A stretch of 64,000 nt of DNA from an uncultured Gemmatimonadota bacterium (GTDB lineage Bacteria > Blakebacterota > Blakebacteria > Blakebacterales > CAYUVJ01): NCBI GenBank assembly GCA_964519015.1, contig CAZFHZ010000004.1:3479-67478 (forward strand). Direction: 5' to 3'. Numbering within the stretch: position 1 is the first letter of the stretch; each line of letters starts with the position of its first letter. Shown here one piece after another: positions 25,855 through 34,389 of this stretch. A program made the position numbers and the translations under genes. The notes under the pieces were generated by a model that saw only the letters and a program-made list of their open reading frames with translations, did not search any database and was not told where the DNA came from.

Positions 25855-27276
25855 GTGAACGACACCTCCGCGGGAGAAACCGCCCCGATGCGCGATGAGC
25901 CCGACCGCACCCTCCCCCGCGAACTCCGGCTCTTCTCCACGACCAACATCGTGATCGCCGACATGATCGGCGCCGGCATCTTCACCACCTCAGGCCTGCT
26001 CATGGCCGGCCTGTACAACCCGGTACTGATGCTGCTGCTCTGGCTGGTCGGCGGGGTGCTCGCGCTCTGCGGCGCGCTCTGCTACGGGGAACTGGGCGCG
26101 GCCATGCCCGAAGCGGGGGGGGAGTACGTCTACCTCAGCCGGCTCTACCATCCCCTGCTGGGCTTTCTGACCGGCTGGGTCTCCATCATGGCCGGATTCT
26201 CCGCCCCGATCGCGGCCGCCTCCCTGGGCTGCAGCGAGTACCTGGCCGCCGCCTTCCCCGCCCTCTTCGCCTGGGGGAACCCGTTCCTGCTCAGAAGGAT
26301 CCTCGCCCTGGCCGTCATCATCACCTTCACGGCTATACACTACCGGGGCATCCGGTTCGGAGCGGCCGTGCAAAACGGGCTCACCGTCCTGAAGGTGTTG
26401 CTGATCGTGGCGCTGATCACGGCCGGTTTCGCGGTCGGCCGGGGGGACCTCGGTCACCTCTTTGAGGGGCGGCCCTTCACCCTCGACTTCGGCGGCTTCA
26501 AGACCATCGGCCTCTCACTGATGTGGATCATGTTCGCCTACAGCGGCTGGAGCGCCTCCTCCTATCTGGGCGCCGAGATCCGCGACCCGGTGCGCAACCT
26601 CCCCCGCTCCCTGCTGCTCGGGACCGGCGTGGTGACCCTGCTCTATTTCCTGCTCAACCTGCTCTTCGTCTACGCCGCCCCACCCGAGGAGATGAGCGGG
26701 GTGATCGCCATCGGGGGGCTCACCGCCGGCCGGCTCTTCGGGGACTCGGTCCAGAGCCTGGTCTCGCTCCTGATCGCTTTCGCCCTGTTGTCGGCCATCA
26801 GCGTCTTCATCATCCTGGGTCCGCGGGTCTACTACGCCATGGCCCGGGACGGCTGTTTCTTCCGGACGGCCGGCCGGATCCACCCGCTCTTCCGTTCCCC
26901 CCACATATCGATCGTGCTCCAGTCCCTGATCGCGGCCGTCATGGTCCTGACCGGCACCTTCGACCAGATCCTGACCTACATGGGGTTCTCGCTCGGGATC
27001 TTCCCCCTCTTCGCGGTCTTCGGGGTCTTCCGGCTGCGCCGGCACGGCGTCAGCGTCGCCCCGATGCCGCTCTATCCCCTGGCCCCGCTGATCTTCCTGG
27101 TGGCCGGGATCGGCATCCTCGTGTTCGCCTATCTCGAGCGCCCGGTCGAATCCTCGATCGCGCTGTTGATGGTCGCGGCCGGCATCCCGGCTTGGTTCCT
27201 CTTCACCCGGAGCGCCGCCCGGACGGCCGCCCGGGAGCGCGCTGTGACGGATCGCACATCCGAAACCCCGGAGTGA
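25855..27276 (+). CDS. APC-family amino-acid/polyamine permease
   Basis: 12 TM; …RELRLFSTTNIVIADMIGAGIFTTSGLLMAG… and …GGEYVYLSRLYHPLLGFLTGW… APC signatures. Confidence 0.8.
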   Translation: MNDTSAGETAPMRDEPDRTLPRELRLFSTTNIVIADMIGAGIFTTSGLLMAGLYNPVLMLLLWLVGGVLALCGALCYGELGAAMPEAGGEYVYLSRLYHPLLGFLTGWVSIMAGFSAPIAAASLGCSEYLAAAFPALFAWGNPFLLRRILALAVIITFTAIHYRGIRFGAAVQNGLTVLKVLLIVALITAGFAVGRGDLGHLFEGRPFTLDFGGFKTIGLSLMWIMFAYSGWSASSYLGAEIRDPVRNLPRSLLLGTGVVTLLYFLLNLLFVYAAPPEEMSGVIAIGGLTAGRLFGDSVQSLVSLLIAFALLSAISVFIILGPRVYYAMARDGCFFRTAGRIHPLFRSPHISIVLQSLIAAVMVLTGTFDQILTYMGFSLGIFPLFAVFGVFRLRRHGVSVAPMPLYPLAPLIFLVAGIGILVFAYLERPVESSIALLMVAAGIPAWFLFTRSAARTAARERAVTDRTSETPE

Positions 27277-27301: not shown

Positions 27302-27982
27302 ATGAAGAACCGACTTCTGATCCCCGCTTTGATCCTCCTGGTGACGCCGGCCCTCCGGGTCGGGGCCCAGGAGACCGACCTGGACCGTCGCGTCCGGGCC
27401 TTCCTGGACAGCCATGCCCGGCAGTGGCGGGACATGAACGTGCCGATGGTGGACGGCCAGGCGCTTTACGACGTGATCGTGGAACACACGTACACCCGGG
27501 CCGTGGAGGTGGGCACCTCCACCGGGCACTCGGGGATCTGGATCGCCTGGGCCCTGAGTAAGACCGGGGGCAAGCTCATCACCATCGAGATCGACGAGAG
27601 GCGCCACCGCCAGGCGGTGGCCAACTTCGAGGCGGCCGGCCTGAGTGAATATGTCGATGCCCGGTTGGCCGACGCCCACGAACTGGTGCCTCAACTCACC
27701 GGCCCCTTCGACTTCGCTTTCGTGGACGCCGACAAGGACTGGTATACCCAGTACTTCAAGTGGTTGCTGCCCAAGCTGGAGGTGGGGGGCTGCTTCACCG
27801 CCCACAACGTCAGCGCTCCGTCCGGCCAGGGAGGGCGCGGCGGTCGGGGTGGACGCGGCGGCATGGGCATGGCCGGGACGGCGGCCTTCGTCCGGGAACT
27901 GATGGCCACACCGGGCCTGGAGACCACCTTCTTCCGCTCCGGCGGCGGTCTGTCCATCAGCTACAAGAAGCCGCCTGAGTAA
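27302..27982 (+). CDS. Secreted class-I SAM-dependent O-methyltransferase (caffeoyl-CoA OMT-like, family 3) with Gly/Arg-rich insert
   Basis: Signal peptide MKNRLLIPALILLVTPALRVGAQ; …VEVGTSTGHSGIWIAWALSKTGGKLITIEIDERRHRQAVANFEAAGL…FDFAFVDADKDWYTQYFKWLLPKLEVGGCFTAHNV…; insert PSGQGGRGGRGGRGGMGMAG before C-terminus …GGGLSISYKKPPE. Confidence 0.75.
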   Translation: MKNRLLIPALILLVTPALRVGAQETDLDRRVRAFLDSHARQWRDMNVPMVDGQALYDVIVEHTYTRAVEVGTSTGHSGIWIAWALSKTGGKLITIEIDERRHRQAVANFEAAGLSEYVDARLADAHELVPQLTGPFDFAFVDADKDWYTQYFKWLLPKLEVGGCFTAHNVSAPSGQGGRGGRGGRGGMGMAGTAAFVRELMATPGLETTFFRSGGGLSISYKKPPE

Positions 27983-27997
27983 GCACAGCAGCGGTGT

Positions 27998-29113
27998 TTA
28001 GTACCCCGGCGGGCGCTCCGGCAGAGGGTAGAGGGTCACACCCTCCCGCGCGGCCGCCAGCACCTTCGAGAGACTGACCACAACCAACTTGGCGGTCGGG
28101 CTCGACAGCAGATAGACCCGGTCGCCGAGCACGACCAGGTCGTCCCAGGTGGCATGGTTACCTTCTTTGACCAGGTTGACCCCGAAGCGGCCGAAGGAGA
28201 CGGGGTGGAGCGCCCCCGTGGCCAGGTCGATGACGGCCAGGTTATAGAGCGGTCCGCCAACCAGGAGTTGATCTCCGATCTGTACCCCGCCCCCGAAGAT
28301 GGCCACTGCGCTAGCGGCACGGACGGCGGGGGCCCGGCGCTCTTCCAGCGTTTCCTGCCAGGCGGGGGCGATTAGGGGGAAACCCTTGTCAATCTCCCAG
28401 AACCAGTCGATCGGCTCGCTTCCAAGTCGCACCAGCCGCGGAACGTGCCGGAAGAGCAGCCAGGGAGAACCGGTTTCACCGATCAGATCCACGACTCCTT
28501 CTAAGAAGGTGCGGACACCCGGCTGCCAGGGATCGGCAGCCACTATCGCTCCGGTCCTGTCGTATTCGGTGAGCAGGGTGTCCGGCCGACCGGGAGAGCC
28601 GGTGAAATACTCCTCCACCGCCGGGTTGTACCGGTACTTGGCGACCAGGACCGTGCCGTGATCGGTCAGAAACACTTCCGGGGGGTGGGAAGCCCGGGTG
28701 AGGACGCGGAATCCACCCCGATAGCGGCCCTCATAGTCCAGGAACTCGATCCGGTTGCTCCGGCTCATGAAACCGTCCAGGACGGCCAGCGTGCCGTCCT
28801 GGACACAGATGTCGGCAATCCCGCTGAACTCCCCCGGTCCCTCTCCGAGCCGGCCGATCTTGCGGATAAGGTTCAGCTCGGCATCGAACACGTAGACCGC
28901 ATGCAGTCCCTGGTCGGCGATGAAGAGGAGCGGACTGTCGACGGCCGCGCTGACCGGCCGGTAGACCGGATAGCCGGGCAGATCGGTATGGACCTCGAAG
29001 TCGGTGAGTACCCCGCCCAGGGCGGGCCGCTTCTTCGGATCGCTCGAGGAGCCGCATGCCCCGCTGATCATCAGCAGGACCAGAAGGGGAGCGATCACCG
29101 TCCGCTTCCTCAT
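27998..29113 (-). CDS. NHL-repeat/6-bladed beta-propeller lipoprotein, paralog A
   Basis: Internal ATG 29113: MRKRTVIAPLLVLLMISGAC|GSS lipobox; …GRLGEGPGEFSGIADICVQDGTLAVLD… NHL-type blade. Confidence 0.55.
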   Translation of the reverse strand: MRKRTVIAPLLVLLMISGACGSSSDPKKRPALGGVLTDFEVHTDLPGYPVYRPVSAAVDSPLLFIADQGLHAVYVFDAELNLIRKIGRLGEGPGEFSGIADICVQDGTLAVLDGFMSRSNRIEFLDYEGRYRGGFRVLTRASHPPEVFLTDHGTVLVAKYRYNPAVEEYFTGSPGRPDTLLTEYDRTGAIVAADPWQPGVRTFLEGVVDLIGETGSPWLLFRHVPRLVRLGSEPIDWFWEIDKGFPLIAPAWQETLEERRAPAVRAASAVAIFGGGVQIGDQLLVGGPLYNLAVIDLATGALHPVSFGRFGVNLVKEGNHATWDDLVVLGDRVYLLSSPTAKLVVVSLSKVLAAAREGVTLYPLPERPPGY

Positions 29114-29126
29114 CCGATGACTCCGC

Positions 29127-30347
29127 TCAGTGATAATGCAGTCCCTCCACGGCCGGAACGATCCGGTAAACGATAGGTATCTGCTCATCGGTCTCTGGCA
29201 GAGTACGAATGCTCATAAGCTGGCCATCTCGGATCGAGAACAGCTTGCCCGGGAGGTGCGCGCGACCCAAATAGCGGCCCTCCGAGTCCACCACGTGCCA
29301 CCAGGCGGCATCCACAGCCCAATTGAAGACGTTGCCCTCAACATCGCGCAGCCAGAACCAGCCTCGATCGTCAGCATAGATACTCGTGCTGAAACCAAAC
29401 CGTTCCGCGAAGACGACCTGTTGTCGGATATCCTCCGACGGCAACCGGCCCTCGGCGGTGGCCAGACTATCCATGAATGTGAAGTACCGGTTCCTGAACG
29501 CAGCGTCGATGGGACGCTCCTGCTGGTCGATCCGGATGATCCGGCGCAGTACCCCCAGGGGGGAGAAGATCTGGATGAGTGGTTGGTTTCCTTGGGCGAG
29601 AATGATCTCGCGTTCACGAGTGACGGCCATAGCCGATGAACCCCCGAAGAAGACGACGGACAGACGTCCCCGATAAGTTCCTCCCAGTCCGGACGGGTAG
29701 GTGACCCTCGATTCCGGCACGAACTCACCCCGCACGATGGCCACCGTGTCACCTGTGGTCGCCCGCGTGATGAGGGCTCGCGGCCGAGTGTAGTGTACAT
29801 CGGTCAGCCGCTGACCTTCCCAACTGATGCCGATCAGATAATCGCGATTGGAAACCAGGACGTTTGGTACTCCACCATTCGACTGCCGGAAGGAATCGAG
29901 GAAACACCCGTCGGTGGTTACGCGGCTGGCCCGTTGAGTTCCGTGATCGTAGATCGTCAGGGTGTCGCCATCGAGAGCGGTAATCTCGGGACCCCGGTAC
30001 TCCCCGGGGCCGTAGCCACGCCGGCCGAATGTGCACCGGTACCTTCCGTCGGCCTCGTAGACGACGATCCGCCCTTTCCTCCCATCCACCACGTAGTACC
30101 GGCCGTCCATGCCCCGCTCGAAAGAGGCGACGCCCCATAGCAGCGATGCTTCTTGGGCGGAGTCCTGTTCCAGCCGGAACAGTTCCTCGAACCGGAAGAG
30201 CTGCTCAGCATAGGCCGGACCACCGGTGGTCTCGGCCACCCGGACGCCCTCCTCGGTGTGGGTGCGAAAACGATGGCCGCCCGGTGGGCCGCCCCCACAG
30301 CCGGACACGAGGATAACGGCCGCCAGTACGGGGCCGATCCGCGGCAT
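29127..30347 (-). CDS. NHL-repeat/6-bladed beta-propeller lipoprotein, paralog B
   Basis: MPRIGPVLAAVILVSGC|GGG lipobox; …RYYVVDGRKGRIVVYEADGRYRCTFGRRGYGPGEYRGPEITALDGDTLTIYD…; about 65% identical to paralog C with clear DNA-level similarity. Confidence 0.6.
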   Translation of the reverse strand: MPRIGPVLAAVILVSGCGGGPPGGHRFRTHTEEGVRVAETTGGPAYAEQLFRFEELFRLEQDSAQEASLLWGVASFERGMDGRYYVVDGRKGRIVVYEADGRYRCTFGRRGYGPGEYRGPEITALDGDTLTIYDHGTQRASRVTTDGCFLDSFRQSNGGVPNVLVSNRDYLIGISWEGQRLTDVHYTRPRALITRATTGDTVAIVRGEFVPESRVTYPSGLGGTYRGRLSVVFFGGSSAMAVTREREIILAQGNQPLIQIFSPLGVLRRIIRIDQQERPIDAAFRNRYFTFMDSLATAEGRLPSEDIRQQVVFAERFGFSTSIYADDRGWFWLRDVEGNVFNWAVDAAWWHVVDSEGRYLGRAHLPGKLFSIRDGQLMSIRTLPETDEQIPIVYRIVPAVEGLHYH

Positions 30348-30423
30348 GATCAAGCTCCTGGTCAAGATCTGCCCGAGGAAAGGAACAACATCAAGCAGAC
30401 GCACCGTTACGAATCCCGTTTAT

Positions 30424-30469
30424 AACCGGCGGCGGCCTGTCCATCAGCTACAAGAAGCCGCCGGAGTAG
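30424..30469 (+). repeat. 45-bp near-exact duplicate (about 42/45) of the O-methyltransferase 3' end including its stop codon
   Basis: 30424 ccggcggcggcctgtccatcagctacaagaagccgccggagtagg versus 27939 ccggcggcggtctgtccatcagctacaagaagccgcctgagtaag; both encode GGGLSISYKKPPE*. Located between paralogs B and C. Confidence 0.85.
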
Positions 30470-30478
30470 GCTGGCGGC

Positions 30479-31732
30479 TCAGCGATAGCGCAGACCCTCC
30501 ACGGCCGGAACGATCCGGTAAACGGTCGGGATCTGCTCGCCGGTCTCTTCGACGTAGCGGATGCACATGAGCAGACCGTCGCGGATGGCATAGGGCGTGC
30601 CGGGAAAGTATGCCCGCCCCAGGTAACGCCCCTCGGCGTCCACGACGTGCCAGCCCGCCGCGTCCGGTTCGGTGGCGATGTACCGGCTCATCACATCCAT
30701 GAGCCATAACCATCCCCGGTCGTCCGCCCGCAGATCCTCGCTGAAACCGACTTTGTCCGCGAAGACGAGACGCTCCCGAAGACCTTCCTGAGGGATTCTT
30801 CCGCTGGCGGTCGCCAGACTGTCCATGAATGCGAAGTACCGGTTGCGGAATGAGGCGTCGATAGGCCGCTCCGGCTGCTCGATCCGGATGCGGGGGCGCG
30901 GCTCTCCGAGCGGCGAAAAGATCTGGATGAGGGCTTCGTTCCCCTGCGCCACCACGATGTCATGCCGGGGAGTGATCACCATCATGGGATACCCACCCAG
31001 TTGCAGCATGGAATAGCGGCCGCGGTAGGTGCCCCCCGGTTCCGTCAGATCTGTGAAGCGGGTTACGGGCACGAACTCCCCGCGCACGATAGCCACCGTG
31101 TCGCCCGTGGCCGCCCGGGTGATGAGGGCCCGGGACCGGCTGTACTGGATGTTGGCCGGCCGTTGACTCTCCGAGACGACGCCGATCAGCAGGCCGTCGT
31201 GGGCCACCAGGACGCTCGGTCCTCCACCGTTCGACTGCCGGAAGGTATCGAGGAGACGCCCGTCGGTGGTGAATCGGATTGCCCGCTGCAGTCCGGTGTC
31301 GTGGATCGTCAGGGTGTCCCCGTCGAAGGCGGTGAGCTTGGGCATCCGGAACTCGCCCGGGCCGCTGCCGCGCCGGCCGAACGTGCTCCGGTACGACCCG
31401 TCCGCCTCATAGACCACGACCCGGCAATCGCCGCCGTCCAGCACGTAGTACCGGCCGTCCGGGCCCCGTTCGAATGAATTGACCCGGCTGAGCAGGGAGG
31501 CTTCCTGCGCCGGGTCCTGCTTCAGCCGGAGCACCTCCTCGAACCGGAAGAGGGGCTCGGAGTGGGCCGGACCGCCGGTGGTCTCGGCCACCCGGACACC
31601 ATCCTCGGTATAGGTACGGAACTGGTGACCGCCCGGCGGGCCGCCCCCGCAGCCGACGAGAATCCCGAGCAGCAGCACCAGGATTGGCCGGAGTGACCGT
31701 CCGATCGTCCCAGCATAGTCGGTGCGCGACAT
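30479..31732 (-). CDS. NHL-repeat/6-bladed beta-propeller lipoprotein, paralog C
   Basis: MSRTDYAGTIGRSLRPILVLLLGILVGC|GGG; …RYYVLDGGDCRVVVYEADGSYRSTFGRRGSGPGEFRMPKLTAFDGDTLTIHD…; ATG overlaps paralog D stop (TGATG). Confidence 0.6.
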   Translation of the reverse strand: MSRTDYAGTIGRSLRPILVLLLGILVGCGGGPPGGHQFRTYTEDGVRVAETTGGPAHSEPLFRFEEVLRLKQDPAQEASLLSRVNSFERGPDGRYYVLDGGDCRVVVYEADGSYRSTFGRRGSGPGEFRMPKLTAFDGDTLTIHDTGLQRAIRFTTDGRLLDTFRQSNGGGPSVLVAHDGLLIGVVSESQRPANIQYSRSRALITRAATGDTVAIVRGEFVPVTRFTDLTEPGGTYRGRYSMLQLGGYPMMVITPRHDIVVAQGNEALIQIFSPLGEPRPRIRIEQPERPIDASFRNRYFAFMDSLATASGRIPQEGLRERLVFADKVGFSEDLRADDRGWLWLMDVMSRYIATEPDAAGWHVVDAEGRYLGRAYFPGTPYAIRDGLLMCIRYVEETGEQIPTVYRIVPAVEGLRYR

Positions 31733-32967
31733 CAGCGTTCCTCCTCAAGTCGATAGAAACGCACCACCGGAGTGCCATCCTCCAGCTCTTCGTAACGGTA
31801 GTAGCCGTCCTGGTCGAAGTAGAACGGCTCTTGCGGCAGACTCTGGCTGAAGAGCCAGTCCCCGTCGGGATCGAAGACATCGAACCGGTAGGGATCACCC
31901 TCTTCTTCGGCGGCGTAGGTGCGGTATCGCATGACCCAGAGACGCTCCCGCCGGTCCCAGAACATCTCCCCGATAGCCGGCATACGGTCCGGGTAGTCCA
32001 GCCGCCGCAGCCCTTCCTCCGGGTAGCGCTGGGCCGCGTACGACTTGATGAAGGCCTCGATCTCGGGTCCGGTGACCGCCGGACCTTGAACCGGGAGCGT
32101 CAGCTCGATCCGTCCCCCATCCCGGGCGTTCAGGATCACTATCCGGTAGTCTCCCGAGTCCACCCAGGCCAATCGCCCACCGCTCAGGGCGAACTCAGCA
32201 TGGTCTTCGTGCTGAAAGGGACTGGAGAGGTACTTGTTGCCCAGGATAGGCCAGCGGGTCAGGTAGGTGGTGTCGAGCACGGCCTCGATTCGATTCGGAT
32301 GAGGCCACCATCGATCCAACCGGTACTGCCACTGAAAGGTGATCGCGTCCTGGAACGACCCGCTGAGGCCCCGGCCGTCGTACCGGAAGACCGCGAATCC
32401 GCCGCCAGGCAGTAACGTCAACTCCTGATTGGTCCCGGTCAGTTCAGGGGGCAGGAGGAATTGGCCGAGATAGGCGCCCGTCCGATCGTAGCAGGAGATC
32501 CGCCGATTGGAGCTGTCCAGTACGGCCAGGGTGTCACCGGGGAAGACCACCGTGGTGATGGTCCCGAACTCGCCCGGGCCTTTCCCTCGCCGTCCGAAGG
32601 AGCCGAGATGGGTACCGCTGGGATCGAAGCGGTGAACCACCCCTGCCCGGGCATCGCCGATCAGCACCGTACCCGCGGGATCGACTCCCATTATCATGGG
32701 AGCGACGAGCAGGTAGGTGTCATCGGACTGGTCGGCGCCGAAGACGGCTGCGGGCACCACGCGGTAGGGATCGACTCGCGGAGGCAGATCTCCGAGGTAG
32801 TGGAGGCTGGTCACGCCGCCGACAACCTCCCGGAGATAGCCGGTTTCCTCGTGCCCGCCGCAGCTGCAGGCGAACAGGACACTCAACAGCACCAACACGT
32901 CGCGCAGGGATGAAAGTACCGGTCTGCTCATTCCGGGTCGTTGCTCCTGACCAGAGAATCTATCCAT
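31732..32967 (-). CDS. NHL-repeat/6-bladed beta-propeller lipoprotein, paralog D
   Basis: …VLVLLSVLFACSC|GG lipobox; …GTHLGSFGRRGKGPGEFGTITTVVFPGDTLAVLD…; alternative start 32931. Confidence 0.55.
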   Translation of the reverse strand: MDRFSGQEQRPGMSRPVLSSLRDVLVLLSVLFACSCGGHEETGYLREVVGGVTSLHYLGDLPPRVDPYRVVPAAVFGADQSDDTYLLVAPMIMGVDPAGTVLIGDARAGVVHRFDPSGTHLGSFGRRGKGPGEFGTITTVVFPGDTLAVLDSSNRRISCYDRTGAYLGQFLLPPELTGTNQELTLLPGGGFAVFRYDGRGLSGSFQDAITFQWQYRLDRWWPHPNRIEAVLDTTYLTRWPILGNKYLSSPFQHEDHAEFALSGGRLAWVDSGDYRIVILNARDGGRIELTLPVQGPAVTGPEIEAFIKSYAAQRYPEEGLRRLDYPDRMPAIGEMFWDRRERLWVMRYRTYAAEEEGDPYRFDVFDPDGDWLFSQSLPQEPFYFDQDGYYRYEELEDGTPVVRFYRLEEER

Positions 32968-32971
32968 ATGC

Positions 32972-34183
32972 CTACCGCGGGATCTCGATCCGGTAGCGCT
33001 TCACCCGGGGGACCTGGTCGGGAGAGCGTACCGATGTGATGAACACGTCGCCGCGGATCCAGACGAGCGAGCTCAGCCGGACCTCGTCGGGCAACTCCAG
33101 GGTCCCCAGGTATCTCCCGGCGGTCTCGAAGACATCCACCACCTGCGAGGAATCCCAGCGGGGCGGCGTATCGGCATCCTCGCCTCCGACCCGGACGCCC
33201 GGTCCCTCACGGACCACCCAGAGCCGGCCGCTCAGGTCGGCTACGATCTCGGAGAACCACGGTTTGGTGTCGGGGACCGGGGGCGCCCGCCAGGAGAAGG
33301 AGGGATCGGAGTGGCGCAGGATGCGGGTGTAGGTCTCGATGTACCAGTCCCTCTCTTCACGCTGGACCGGAATGGGTTCGCACACCCGTTCGAGGGCGTG
33401 GACGGAACCCTCCCGGTCCGTCACCGTGATCCGGTAGCGGTCGGAGATGCCGTGGATGAGGGAACCGTCTACGCTGAACGTCCAGACCAGGTCCGGAGCG
33501 AACGGCACCGACAATGCCGTCCGCTCGGTCCTGAGCTGGTACTTCTCGCTGTCGAAGAAGGGCGCCCAGACCGTGTCGAGGACCGCTTCCCTCGGCCCGG
33601 TCCGGCCCATGCCGTAGCGCCGAGGCGGCCGCCGGTTGGCGATGGGCACGTAAGCTCCTCCATCGCGGGTGAGGATCGTCGGGCGGAAGGAGCCGAGGTA
33701 GGAGGAGAGCGGCCAGGTGGCCGCCGGGACTCCGTCCAGCGTGTAGACGTTCACCCGGTTCAGGCTGATGTCCCGAACCACGACCCGGTCCTGTTCCGCG
33801 TCCACGGCGAGACCGGTAGGCAGGCGGAACTCCCCCGGTCCCGCACCCCGGCCGCCGAAGTCGAAGAGATGCCGGCCGTCCCAGCCGTAGACCCGCACCC
33901 GGAAGAAGGAGGAGTCCAGGACATAGATCCGGTCCCCGGTGGCGCCCAGCCCCATCACCGACCCCAACAGGTAGGGTCCTTCCTCATTACTGCCGATCGA
34001 GACTTCTTCGACCAGACGGGCCGGTTCTTTCCAGACCGACCCGGAGAGGGTGCGCACGGTACGGATCCCCTCCATGACGAGCTCTTCCTGCCGCCAGGTC
34101 CCATCGTCCGGCACCCGGCCCCCGCAGGAGCACAAGAATGGAAGGAGCGTCATCAGCAGCAGGACGTGGGCAGTACGCATCGT
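32972..34183 (-). CDS. NHL-repeat/6-bladed beta-propeller lipoprotein, paralog E
   Basis: Internal ATG 34183: MRTAHVLLLMTLLPFLCSC|GG; …RVYGWDGRHLFDFGGRGAGPGEFRLPTGLAVDAEQDRVVVRD…; track ORF start 34294 falls inside the tRNA terminator hairpin, so it was trimmed. Confidence 0.55.
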   Translation of the reverse strand, partial: TMRTAHVLLLMTLLPFLCSCGGRVPDDGTWRQEELVMEGIRTVRTLSGSVWKEPARLVEEVSIGSNEEGPYLLGSVMGLGATGDRIYVLDSSFFRVRVYGWDGRHLFDFGGRGAGPGEFRLPTGLAVDAEQDRVVVRDISLNRVNVYTLDGVPAATWPLSSYLGSFRPTILTRDGGAYVPIANRRPPRRYGMGRTGPREAVLDTVWAPFFDSEKYQLRTERTALSVPFAPDLVWTFSVDGSLIHGISDRYRITVTDREGSVHALERVCEPIPVQREERDWYIETYTRILRHSDPSFSWRAPPVPDTKPWFSEIVADLSGRLWVVREGPGVRVGGEDADTPPRWDSSQVVDVFETAGRYLGTLELPDEVRLSSLVWIRGDVFITSVRSPDQVPRVKRYRIEIPR

Positions 34184-34261
34184 CGGGCTCCTGGTCGAGG
34201 GACCGCCCGGTTCCGGTAGTATCGAGAGGACGGATCCGGAGGGCAGGCGTTTATCACCGTC

Positions 34262-34305
34262 CGGGAACACAAACGCCCCCTGGAGGCGGTTCATCCTCCA
34301 GGGGG
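34262..34305 (-). terminator. Rho-independent terminator downstream of tRNA-Asn
   Basis: 11-bp perfect inverted repeat CCCCCTGGAGG/CCTCCAGGGGG (34276-34286 / 34295-34305, 8-nt loop) followed on the minus strand by GTTTGTGTT. Confidence 0.65.
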
Positions 34306-34311
34306 CATCGG

Positions 34312-34389
<78 letters not shown>

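Follow-up and report, generated by a model that had tools for sequence, protein, structure and literature searches.

An orphaned 46-nt methyltransferase gene end as a probable recombination scar in a hypervariable lipoprotein locus of an uncultured Gemmatimonadota bacterium

We propose that a short copy of the 3' end of an O-methyltransferase gene (OMT), stranded between two lipoprotein genes of an uncultured Gemmatimonadota bacterium, is, as read from sequence comparison, the relic of a second, once intact OMT end that converged on lipoprotein gene C. The event behind it was probably a merger of two haplotypes of a hypervariable locus by illegitimate, and probably homology-facilitated, recombination, a reading to which we assign a probability of about 0.6. 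The mechanism and its direction, i.e. which haplotype acted as donor, are inferred from the arrangement of the locus, its counterparts in relatives and the apparent ages of the sequences on either side of the joint.

In the window, by which we mean the entire 64,000-nt stretch of DNA that was analysed, a repeat search returned a direct repeat of 46 nt in two copies identical at 43 positions (93%) and spaced 2,487 nt from start to start. The genuine copy (27939-27984, plus strand) comprises the last 14 OMT codons, the stop codon and 2 nt; the orphan (30426-30471, plus strand) is non-coding and carries a TAG stop. The near-identical copy that a sequence-only reading had placed at 30424-30469, with about 42 of 45 nt matching, is hence real, its position being offset by about 2 nt. 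Identity between the copies is limited to the 46-nt block and breaks off sharply at both edges in pairwise alignment. The 42-nt coding part of the orphan (30428-30469) has just two matches in the window when up to 3 mismatches are allowed, 100 dinucleotide-preserving shuffles gave no match to it, and no OMT fragments other than the genuine end and the orphan are present in the 64 kb. Both copies translate to GGGLSISYKKPPE followed by a stop, and the three differences between them (GGT/GGC, CCT/CCG and TAA/TAG) are all silent when a stop-to-stop change is counted as such, as expected if both ends sat in working OMT genes until recently. The orphan is not a gene, because its reading frame meets a stop 33 codons upstream, no start codon (ATG, GTG or TTG) was seen in that frame between this stop and the orphan, and the ORF list of the window holds no ORF of at least 40 aa in the frame. 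Neither is it a generic repeat element, since each of the relatives retrieved has a single tail, which closes an intact OMT; with two copies in 64 kb the block also falls short of a generic interspersed repeat of the REP or MITE-like kind, and the finding stands after this check.

The genuine copy belongs to an intact class I SAM-dependent O-methyltransferase of 226 aa (27302..27982, plus strand; Pfam Methyltransf_3, 1.5e-18, and Methyltransf_24; TAA stop), preceded by an amino-acid permease gene (25855-27276). The encoded protein begins with a hydrophobic, signal-like segment and contains a variable insert rich in Gly and Arg close to the C-terminus (GQGGRGGRGGRGGMGMAG), and permease and OMT genes lie adjacent in many phyla (Gemmatimonadota, Aminicenantes, Bacteroidales and Acidobacteriota), sometimes in reversed order. 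Converging on the OMT are five genes for lipoproteins of the DUF5128 six-bladed beta-propeller family (Pfam), A to E, all on the minus strand: A (27998..29113, 371 aa), B (29127..30347, 406 aa, of a beta allele clade), C (30479..31732, 417 aa, of a gamma allele clade, its start overlapping the D stop in ATGA), D (31732..32931, 399 aa, with an orthologue in the relative L166) and E (32972..34180, 402 aa, the first gene of the array). A tRNA-Asn (GTT) gene (34314..34389, minus strand) flanks the array beyond E. B and C share 66% protein identity; all other pairs in the array share 24-32%. The orphan sits in the 131-nt gap between C and B, and the 2,487-bp block between the tail copies holds A, B and a 78-nt leader copy. 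Where the OMT meets A, the TAA ends 15 nt before the A stop codon (27998-28000) across a spacer (27983..27997) that we call the type I junction and that is homologous in L084 and L164; where the orphan meets C, the TAG ends 9 nt before the C stop codon (30479-30481) across a spacer (30470..30478) that we call the type II junction and that has the same length in L081, L166 and L165.

Two further similarities within the array concern its coding sequence. A 42-nt stretch recurs once per paralogue at 64-81% identity (28822-28863, 29993-30034, 31345-31386, 32562-32603 and 33823-33864); it appears to lie within the beta-propeller motif FGRRG.GPGEF and so to reflect protein conservation, not a separate repeat element. 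The ends of B and C (29125-29196 and 30477-30548), i.e. the last 70 nt plus 2 nt past the stop, are 88% identical, well above the gene-wide value of about 72%, and encode the conserved C-terminus VYRIVPAVEGL; local gene conversion could have contributed to this similarity as well.

Protein searches with C, A and D combined with contig look-ups gave four informative lineages, all represented by metagenome contigs. The permease-OMT pair is conserved in many genomes and the array is not: none of 80 representative-genome loci from a scan with the OMT has the array adjacent to it, the sole array-like match among them being a distant E-like gene (38%) that lies 5.6 kb from the OMT in L010, and a metagenome scan with the OMT added L084 as the only further close relative. 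As these contigs show, the region that follows the permease-OMT pair is a hypervariable locus in this lineage of Gemmatimonadota and occurs as alternative haplotypes. In the haplotype that we call type II, a C-family gene, which may or may not have D upstream of it, lies convergent to the OMT; in type I the convergent gene is A, itself preceded by a C-family gene.

Type II is seen in L081, where DUF134 and a NifB-like gene precede the permease and the OMT (91% aa identity), after which a 9-nt spacer leads to a convergent C-orthologue (79% aa), the leader and an AbiEi-like gene. L166 has the same left flank, followed by the OMT (89%), a 9-nt spacer, a convergent C-family gene termed L166_X, a D-orthologue (83%) lying just upstream of this OMT-adjacent gene, and a leader. 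Window positions 30426-31669 align with L081 2687-1441 and positions 30426-32878 with L166 3743-1291, in both cases from within an intact OMT, across the 9-nt spacer and on into the C-family gene, and the orphan's first base is where both alignments begin. L165, a short contig that comes from the population of L166, shares this gene end and covers the 9-nt spacer and the beginning of the OMT tail; the spacer of the window matches that of L165 and L166 at 7 of 9 positions, counted by eye. Because L081 and L166 keep the intact form and are colinear with the window from 30426 on, the orphan is best read as the remnant of a second OMT/C junction. The earlier suggestion that it is the footprint of a rearrangement that carried a junction of OMT end and lipoprotein end is borne out by these intact junctions in L081, L166 and, in part, L165.

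Type I is represented by L084, L164 and L083, which are 98-100% identical to each other and are here called T1. Their order is OMT (TAA stop), a 15-nt spacer, a convergent A-orthologue (87-95% aa; 87% in L164, where it adjoins the OMT of that contig), a 13-nt spacer and a C-like gene. The T1 OMT shares about 85% aa identity with that of the window by tblastn and 91% by global alignment, and permease-OMT flanks are about 90% identical among lineages. No orphan tail is found in T1 between A and the C-like gene, with about 1 kb available upstream of A. Both junctions of the window are thus intact in relatives, i.e. as alternative arrangements in related populations, and the orphan, present in one of four lineages (the window's included) with enough context, is a derived feature. 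It had also been argued that the likeness of B to C, with A left aside, demands later rearrangement or gene conversion; no such extra step is needed, because A is not the counterpart of C and the OMT/A junction is a separate, conserved type. The relatives searched include no close one (dS below 0.1) that shows the arrangement expected before the event.

The stop codon of the OMT end follows its neighbour, being TAG in L081, L165, L166 and the orphan, all beside a C-family gene, and TAA in the window OMT and T1, both beside A. Over 42 positions the orphan differs at 1 from the OMT end of L081, at 3 from that of the window itself and at 6 from that of T1. The tail signals conflict at these few sites, as the orphan shares CTG with the resident OMT and both GGC and TAG with L081, and the GGT/GGC site is homoplastic, L166 having GGT. 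The tail sites were accordingly set aside as a means of telling vertical descent in this genome from import out of another lineage. Variability extends to the far flank of the array, since L081 (200-1207) and L166 (1-1038) carry an AbiEi_2-like gene beyond the array leader, in flanks 80.7% identical to each other, and the window (34259-34313) is without this gene and has the tRNA-Asn there instead.

The DNA on the other side of the joint is a leader. Upstream of E lies the array leader (34181..34258, minus strand), which is homologous to the leaders of L081 and L166: window positions 34177-34257 align with the leader of the single gene of L081, the identity being 82% to this leader and 71% to that of D in L166. 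The element of about 78 nt opens with GKKRATAAACG on the operon strand, likewise in L081 (about 1335-1345) and L166 (about 1170-1180). Upstream of B, the 78 nt at 30348..30425 (minus strand) form a diverged copy of this leader, which matches those of E, L081 and L166 at 51-54% identity through colinear conserved blocks, with a score that none of 500 shuffles equalled. The distal edge of the B leader (CGTTTATAAC, plus strand) abuts the orphan, and the motif CGTTTATNAC has just two sites in the window, 30417-30426 and 34248-34257. Taking sister leaders as a proxy for the donor, the edges of leader (...CGG|TGATAAACG) and tail (...GCCGCCGG) have 2-3 nt in common. Leader homology ends at one and the same edge in three contexts, i.e. 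at the OMT tail, on the tRNA-Asn side and, in relatives, at the AbiEi-like island; selection preserving a promoter, or a preferred breakpoint, could account for this shared edge.

The ages on the two sides of the joint are very different. From 3 differences in 46 positions, the neutral distance of the tail pair is about 0.11 (95% interval 0.02-0.35). B and C have a dS of 0.94, a 4-fold divergence of 0.46 and a dN/dS of 0.26, and both genes remain under purifying selection. A tail dating back to the B/C split should have accumulated about 16 mismatches, not the 3 seen (P about 7e-5). The 78-nt leader, about 52% identical to its relatives, and the tail, identical at 43 of 46 positions, therefore have very different histories, and the repeat and the B/C pair arose in separate events. 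One in-situ duplication is thus probably not the source of both the tail repeat and the B/C pair, as their ages and clades differ, and the proposal that the array arose in part by duplication of a unit including the OMT 3' end does not hold against a dS(B,C) of 0.94 versus about 0.11 (P about 7e-5) and the placement of B and C in different clades.

Comparison to the lineage splits refines this picture. Among the window, L081 and T1, dS is 0.24-0.37 for permease, OMT and A, and C has a dS of 0.52 to its L081 orthologue. With a dS of 0.84-0.94 for B against a lineage split of 0.24-0.37, and of 0.94 between B and C, the two genes separated well before the lineages did. An orphan free of constraint since the split of the window from L081 would be expected to show 5.6-9.3 mismatches to the L081 tail, and 2 are seen; P ranges from 0.005 to 0.08, varying with the gene that calibrates the neutral rate. 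A younger age of the orphan than the window/L081 split is, given this range, moderately supported.

The allele clades point in the same direction. By neighbour-joining on Kimura distances, B clusters with L166_X and L165 (98% bootstrap), and C clusters weakly with the L081 C-orthologue and T1; in other strains the B clade and the C clade each fill the OMT-proximal slot. GC3 is 0.725 for B, the lowest of the locus, compared with 0.83 for C, 0.86 for E, 0.88 for the OMT and 0.92 for the permease, and is similarly low in L082 and in the B-like 3' third of L166_X; GC content as such dips at about 28800-30000. L166_X (L166 2440-3690) is a mosaic, its 5' third being C-like (0.82-0.94 nt identity) and its 3' third B-like (0.78-0.81 to B versus 0.58-0.65 to C). 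We note that the ATG overlapping the D stop in the window reads AGG in L166. The C-like gene of T1 is truncated at its 5' end, lacking the first ~100 codons with signal peptide and lipobox, and in L083 (1-130) unrelated, more AT-rich DNA precedes it, which indicates another rearrangement at the locus. The clades, the L166_X mosaic and the T1 truncation together characterize the OMT-adjacent slot as recombination-prone, hypervariable and home to old allele classes. A candidate origin of the T1 gene as a C/B chimera from a deletion between the 3' ends of B and C was rejected, as the gene is C-like, and L081-like, to its end; an Ile codon that it has in common with B also occurs in L165, which leaves CAC as the sole B-specific codon.

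On these grounds, the merger may be pictured as follows. The window contains both haplotypes in series, i.e. permease, OMT (TAA), A, B, the 78-nt leader, the tail (TAG), C, D, E, leader and tRNA-Asn. One haplotype (OMT, A, B, leader) would have been joined at the distal edge of its leader to the other (OMT, C, D, E) by a single illegitimate joint, placed on the second haplotype 46 nt before the OMT stop and bridged by 2-3 shared nucleotides (CGG/CCG), and the other end would have been closed by homologous recombination in shared flanking DNA. Unequal crossover between divergent haplotypes or co-resident copies, possibly followed by loss of a redundant OMT, would be an equivalent route to the same product. 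As to direction, either A and B were inserted into a type II locus or C, D and E into a type I locus. B and C would then be old alleles of a single gene that came to lie in the same genome, and the event behind the repeat would not be their origin. The donor haplotype of this scheme (OMT, A, a B-type gene, leader) was not found among the relatives, the gene upstream of A in T1 being C-like, and no recombination breakpoint is resolvable inside the window OMT, in which sites matching L081 and sites matching T1 are interleaved. The L166_X mosaic, a recombination between B and C types, would be easier to explain had both long been in one genome, and this counts against the merger.

The proposed event resembles homology-facilitated illegitimate recombination as described for Streptococcus pneumoniae, Acinetobacter baylyi and Pseudomonas stutzeri (reviewed in PMC3240628). 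As in those cases, one end would lie here in sequence shared with the resident chromosome (the permease-OMT side or the tRNA side), the other would be an illegitimate joint (with 2-3 shared nt), and the insertion would lie beside a conserved anchor with a small resident piece left behind. In contrast to those cases, both partners here would be versions of one locus instead of foreign DNA, and the case is known from sequence only; this process and unequal crossover between haplotypes fit the locus equally well. A second parallel is found in Rhs, CDI and T6SS effector-immunity arrays, which contain orphaned 3' gene ends and orphan modules (PMC5361080). In the Rhs and T6SS arrays an incoming variant module displaces the resident one by 'C-terminal displacement' and the truncated 3' remnant stays downstream, with homology-facilitated illegitimate recombination as the proposed mechanism (PMC5361080). 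Common to these arrays and the window locus is the accumulation, in one genome, of diverged variants that are alternative alleles elsewhere. The remnant differs, however, in being only 46 nt long and in stemming from a neighbouring housekeeping-type methyltransferase and not from the variable gene, and the variable genes here are DUF5128 beta-propeller lipoproteins without a toxin or immunity signature.

Alternatively, though this is unlikely, an ancient in-place tandem duplication of the OMT tail, 9-nt spacer, C-family gene and 78-nt leader produced B and C, with A inserted beside the OMT later, D and E added upstream, and relatives losing copies through recombination between repeats (tail with tail yielding L081, B with C yielding T1 or L166). 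The borders of the unit suit a head-to-tail joint, with the leader edge abutting the tail; in this the locus is like tandem duplications made by illegitimate recombination between sister chromosomes, in which the end of a unit (here the leader) is fused to its start (here the OMT tail) and a direct repeat marks the unit borders. B predates the split of the three lineages (dS 0.84-0.94 versus 0.24-0.37), as such a duplication predicts, deletion between the 46-nt repeats would restore the L081 arrangement exactly, and the mosaic of C type and B type in L166_X is in agreement with it. However, the units in the window are not copies of each other (A and B versus C, D and E), and B and C, the one gene pair common to both, have diverged about nine times as far as the border repeat. 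A non-coding tail of B/C age should show ~16 mismatches, and 3 are seen (P = 7e-5); the attached leader, at 51-54% identity, makes the apparent ages clash across the joint. Conversion from the resident OMT would be needed to keep the tail so similar, yet would favour the sequence of that gene, and the orphan is closer to L081 (1 versus 3 differences). The duplication moreover requires no fewer than three additional insertions or deletions, the orphan is missing from L081, L166 and T1, and the T1 gene has no clear B-type 3' end, sharing one codon only.

It is improbable that the arrangement exists in no cell and is an assembly chimera of two co-occurring strains with one haplotype each, as might be feared for a metagenome-assembled contig (P0001, P0018) when related populations harbour both types of haplotype. 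Assembly chimeras arise at shared repeats, and the joint at 30425/30426 shares 2-3 nt, far below any assembler k-mer; the tail copies differ at three sites and so do not represent a collapsed or duplicated repeat, and the B leader is intact and ends cleanly at the joint.

Having thus weighed duplication and chimerism against the merger, we turn to function. The orphan probably has none at present, and no sign of one was found. That it was retained as a 3' hairpin or terminator of C, or as part of a promoter or regulatory region of B-A, its conservation reflecting selection and not youth, is very unlikely in our view. Its place within the 131-nt C-B gap and a predicted hairpin of 8 G-C pairs on both strands (-28 to -29 kcal/mol), followed by UUAUAAAC on the operon strand, would suit such a role, but the fold is no better than that of shuffled sequence (z = -0.77 and -0.97), the loop is conserved like the stem, and the differences follow codon positions. 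No terminator-like or promoter-like consensus site was found in 27800-30700, and the orphan has no Rfam match, the only match of that search being the tRNA.

We give similarly little credence to a reading in which the lipoprotein genes with their 78-nt leader are discrete cassettes, swapped by a dedicated, site-preferring recombination that diversifies surface lipoproteins. It is suggested by the coincidence of three independent breakpoints at the leader edge CGTTTATNAC, namely B/OMT tail, E/tRNA and, in L081 and L166, the AbiEi-like gene; the palindromic OMT tail (CCGGCGGC...GCCGCCGG) could then serve as a preferred docking site.

In Escherichia coli, e14 and phage 21 integrate in the 3' end of icd and supply a replacement end, leaving the target gene intact and a short orphan 3' end at the far border of the insert, as is also seen here. 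A site-specific insertion of the 2.49-kb block into the OMT 3' end, with the 46-nt copies as attL and attR, could therefore be imagined from the direct repeats of the target end around a discrete insert, the intact target, the 8-nt inverted repeat CCGGCGGC...GCCGCCGG in the block and the tRNA gene, a common integration site, at the array flank, but is the least credible of all: the insert (27985-30425) consists of native array genes, A and B (both DUF5128), and a leader native to the array, with no integrase, phage or other mobility gene, conservation of the OMT/A junction extends to T1, where the ~1 kb available upstream of A contains no orphan, the inverted-repeat arms, ~24 nt apart, are explained by Gly and Pro codons, and the repeat occurs just twice in the window.

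In conclusion, the orphan is genuine and well accounted for as a recombination scar of an ordinary sort, which adds one more example to a known class of events and has no evident function. Its value lies in dating and ordering events in a hypervariable surface-lipoprotein locus of an uncultivated Gemmatimonadota bacterium. The 46-nt direct repeats predict a deletion variant with an L081-like arrangement, without A and B, that could be sought in the source population. Two apparent paralogues, B and C, are probably old alleles set side by side by recombination and not local duplicates, which indicates that the array grew in part by stacking alleles of different haplotypes. The locus offers a natural example of alleles stacked through illegitimate recombination and bears on how arrays of paralogues in metagenome-assembled genomes are to be read.
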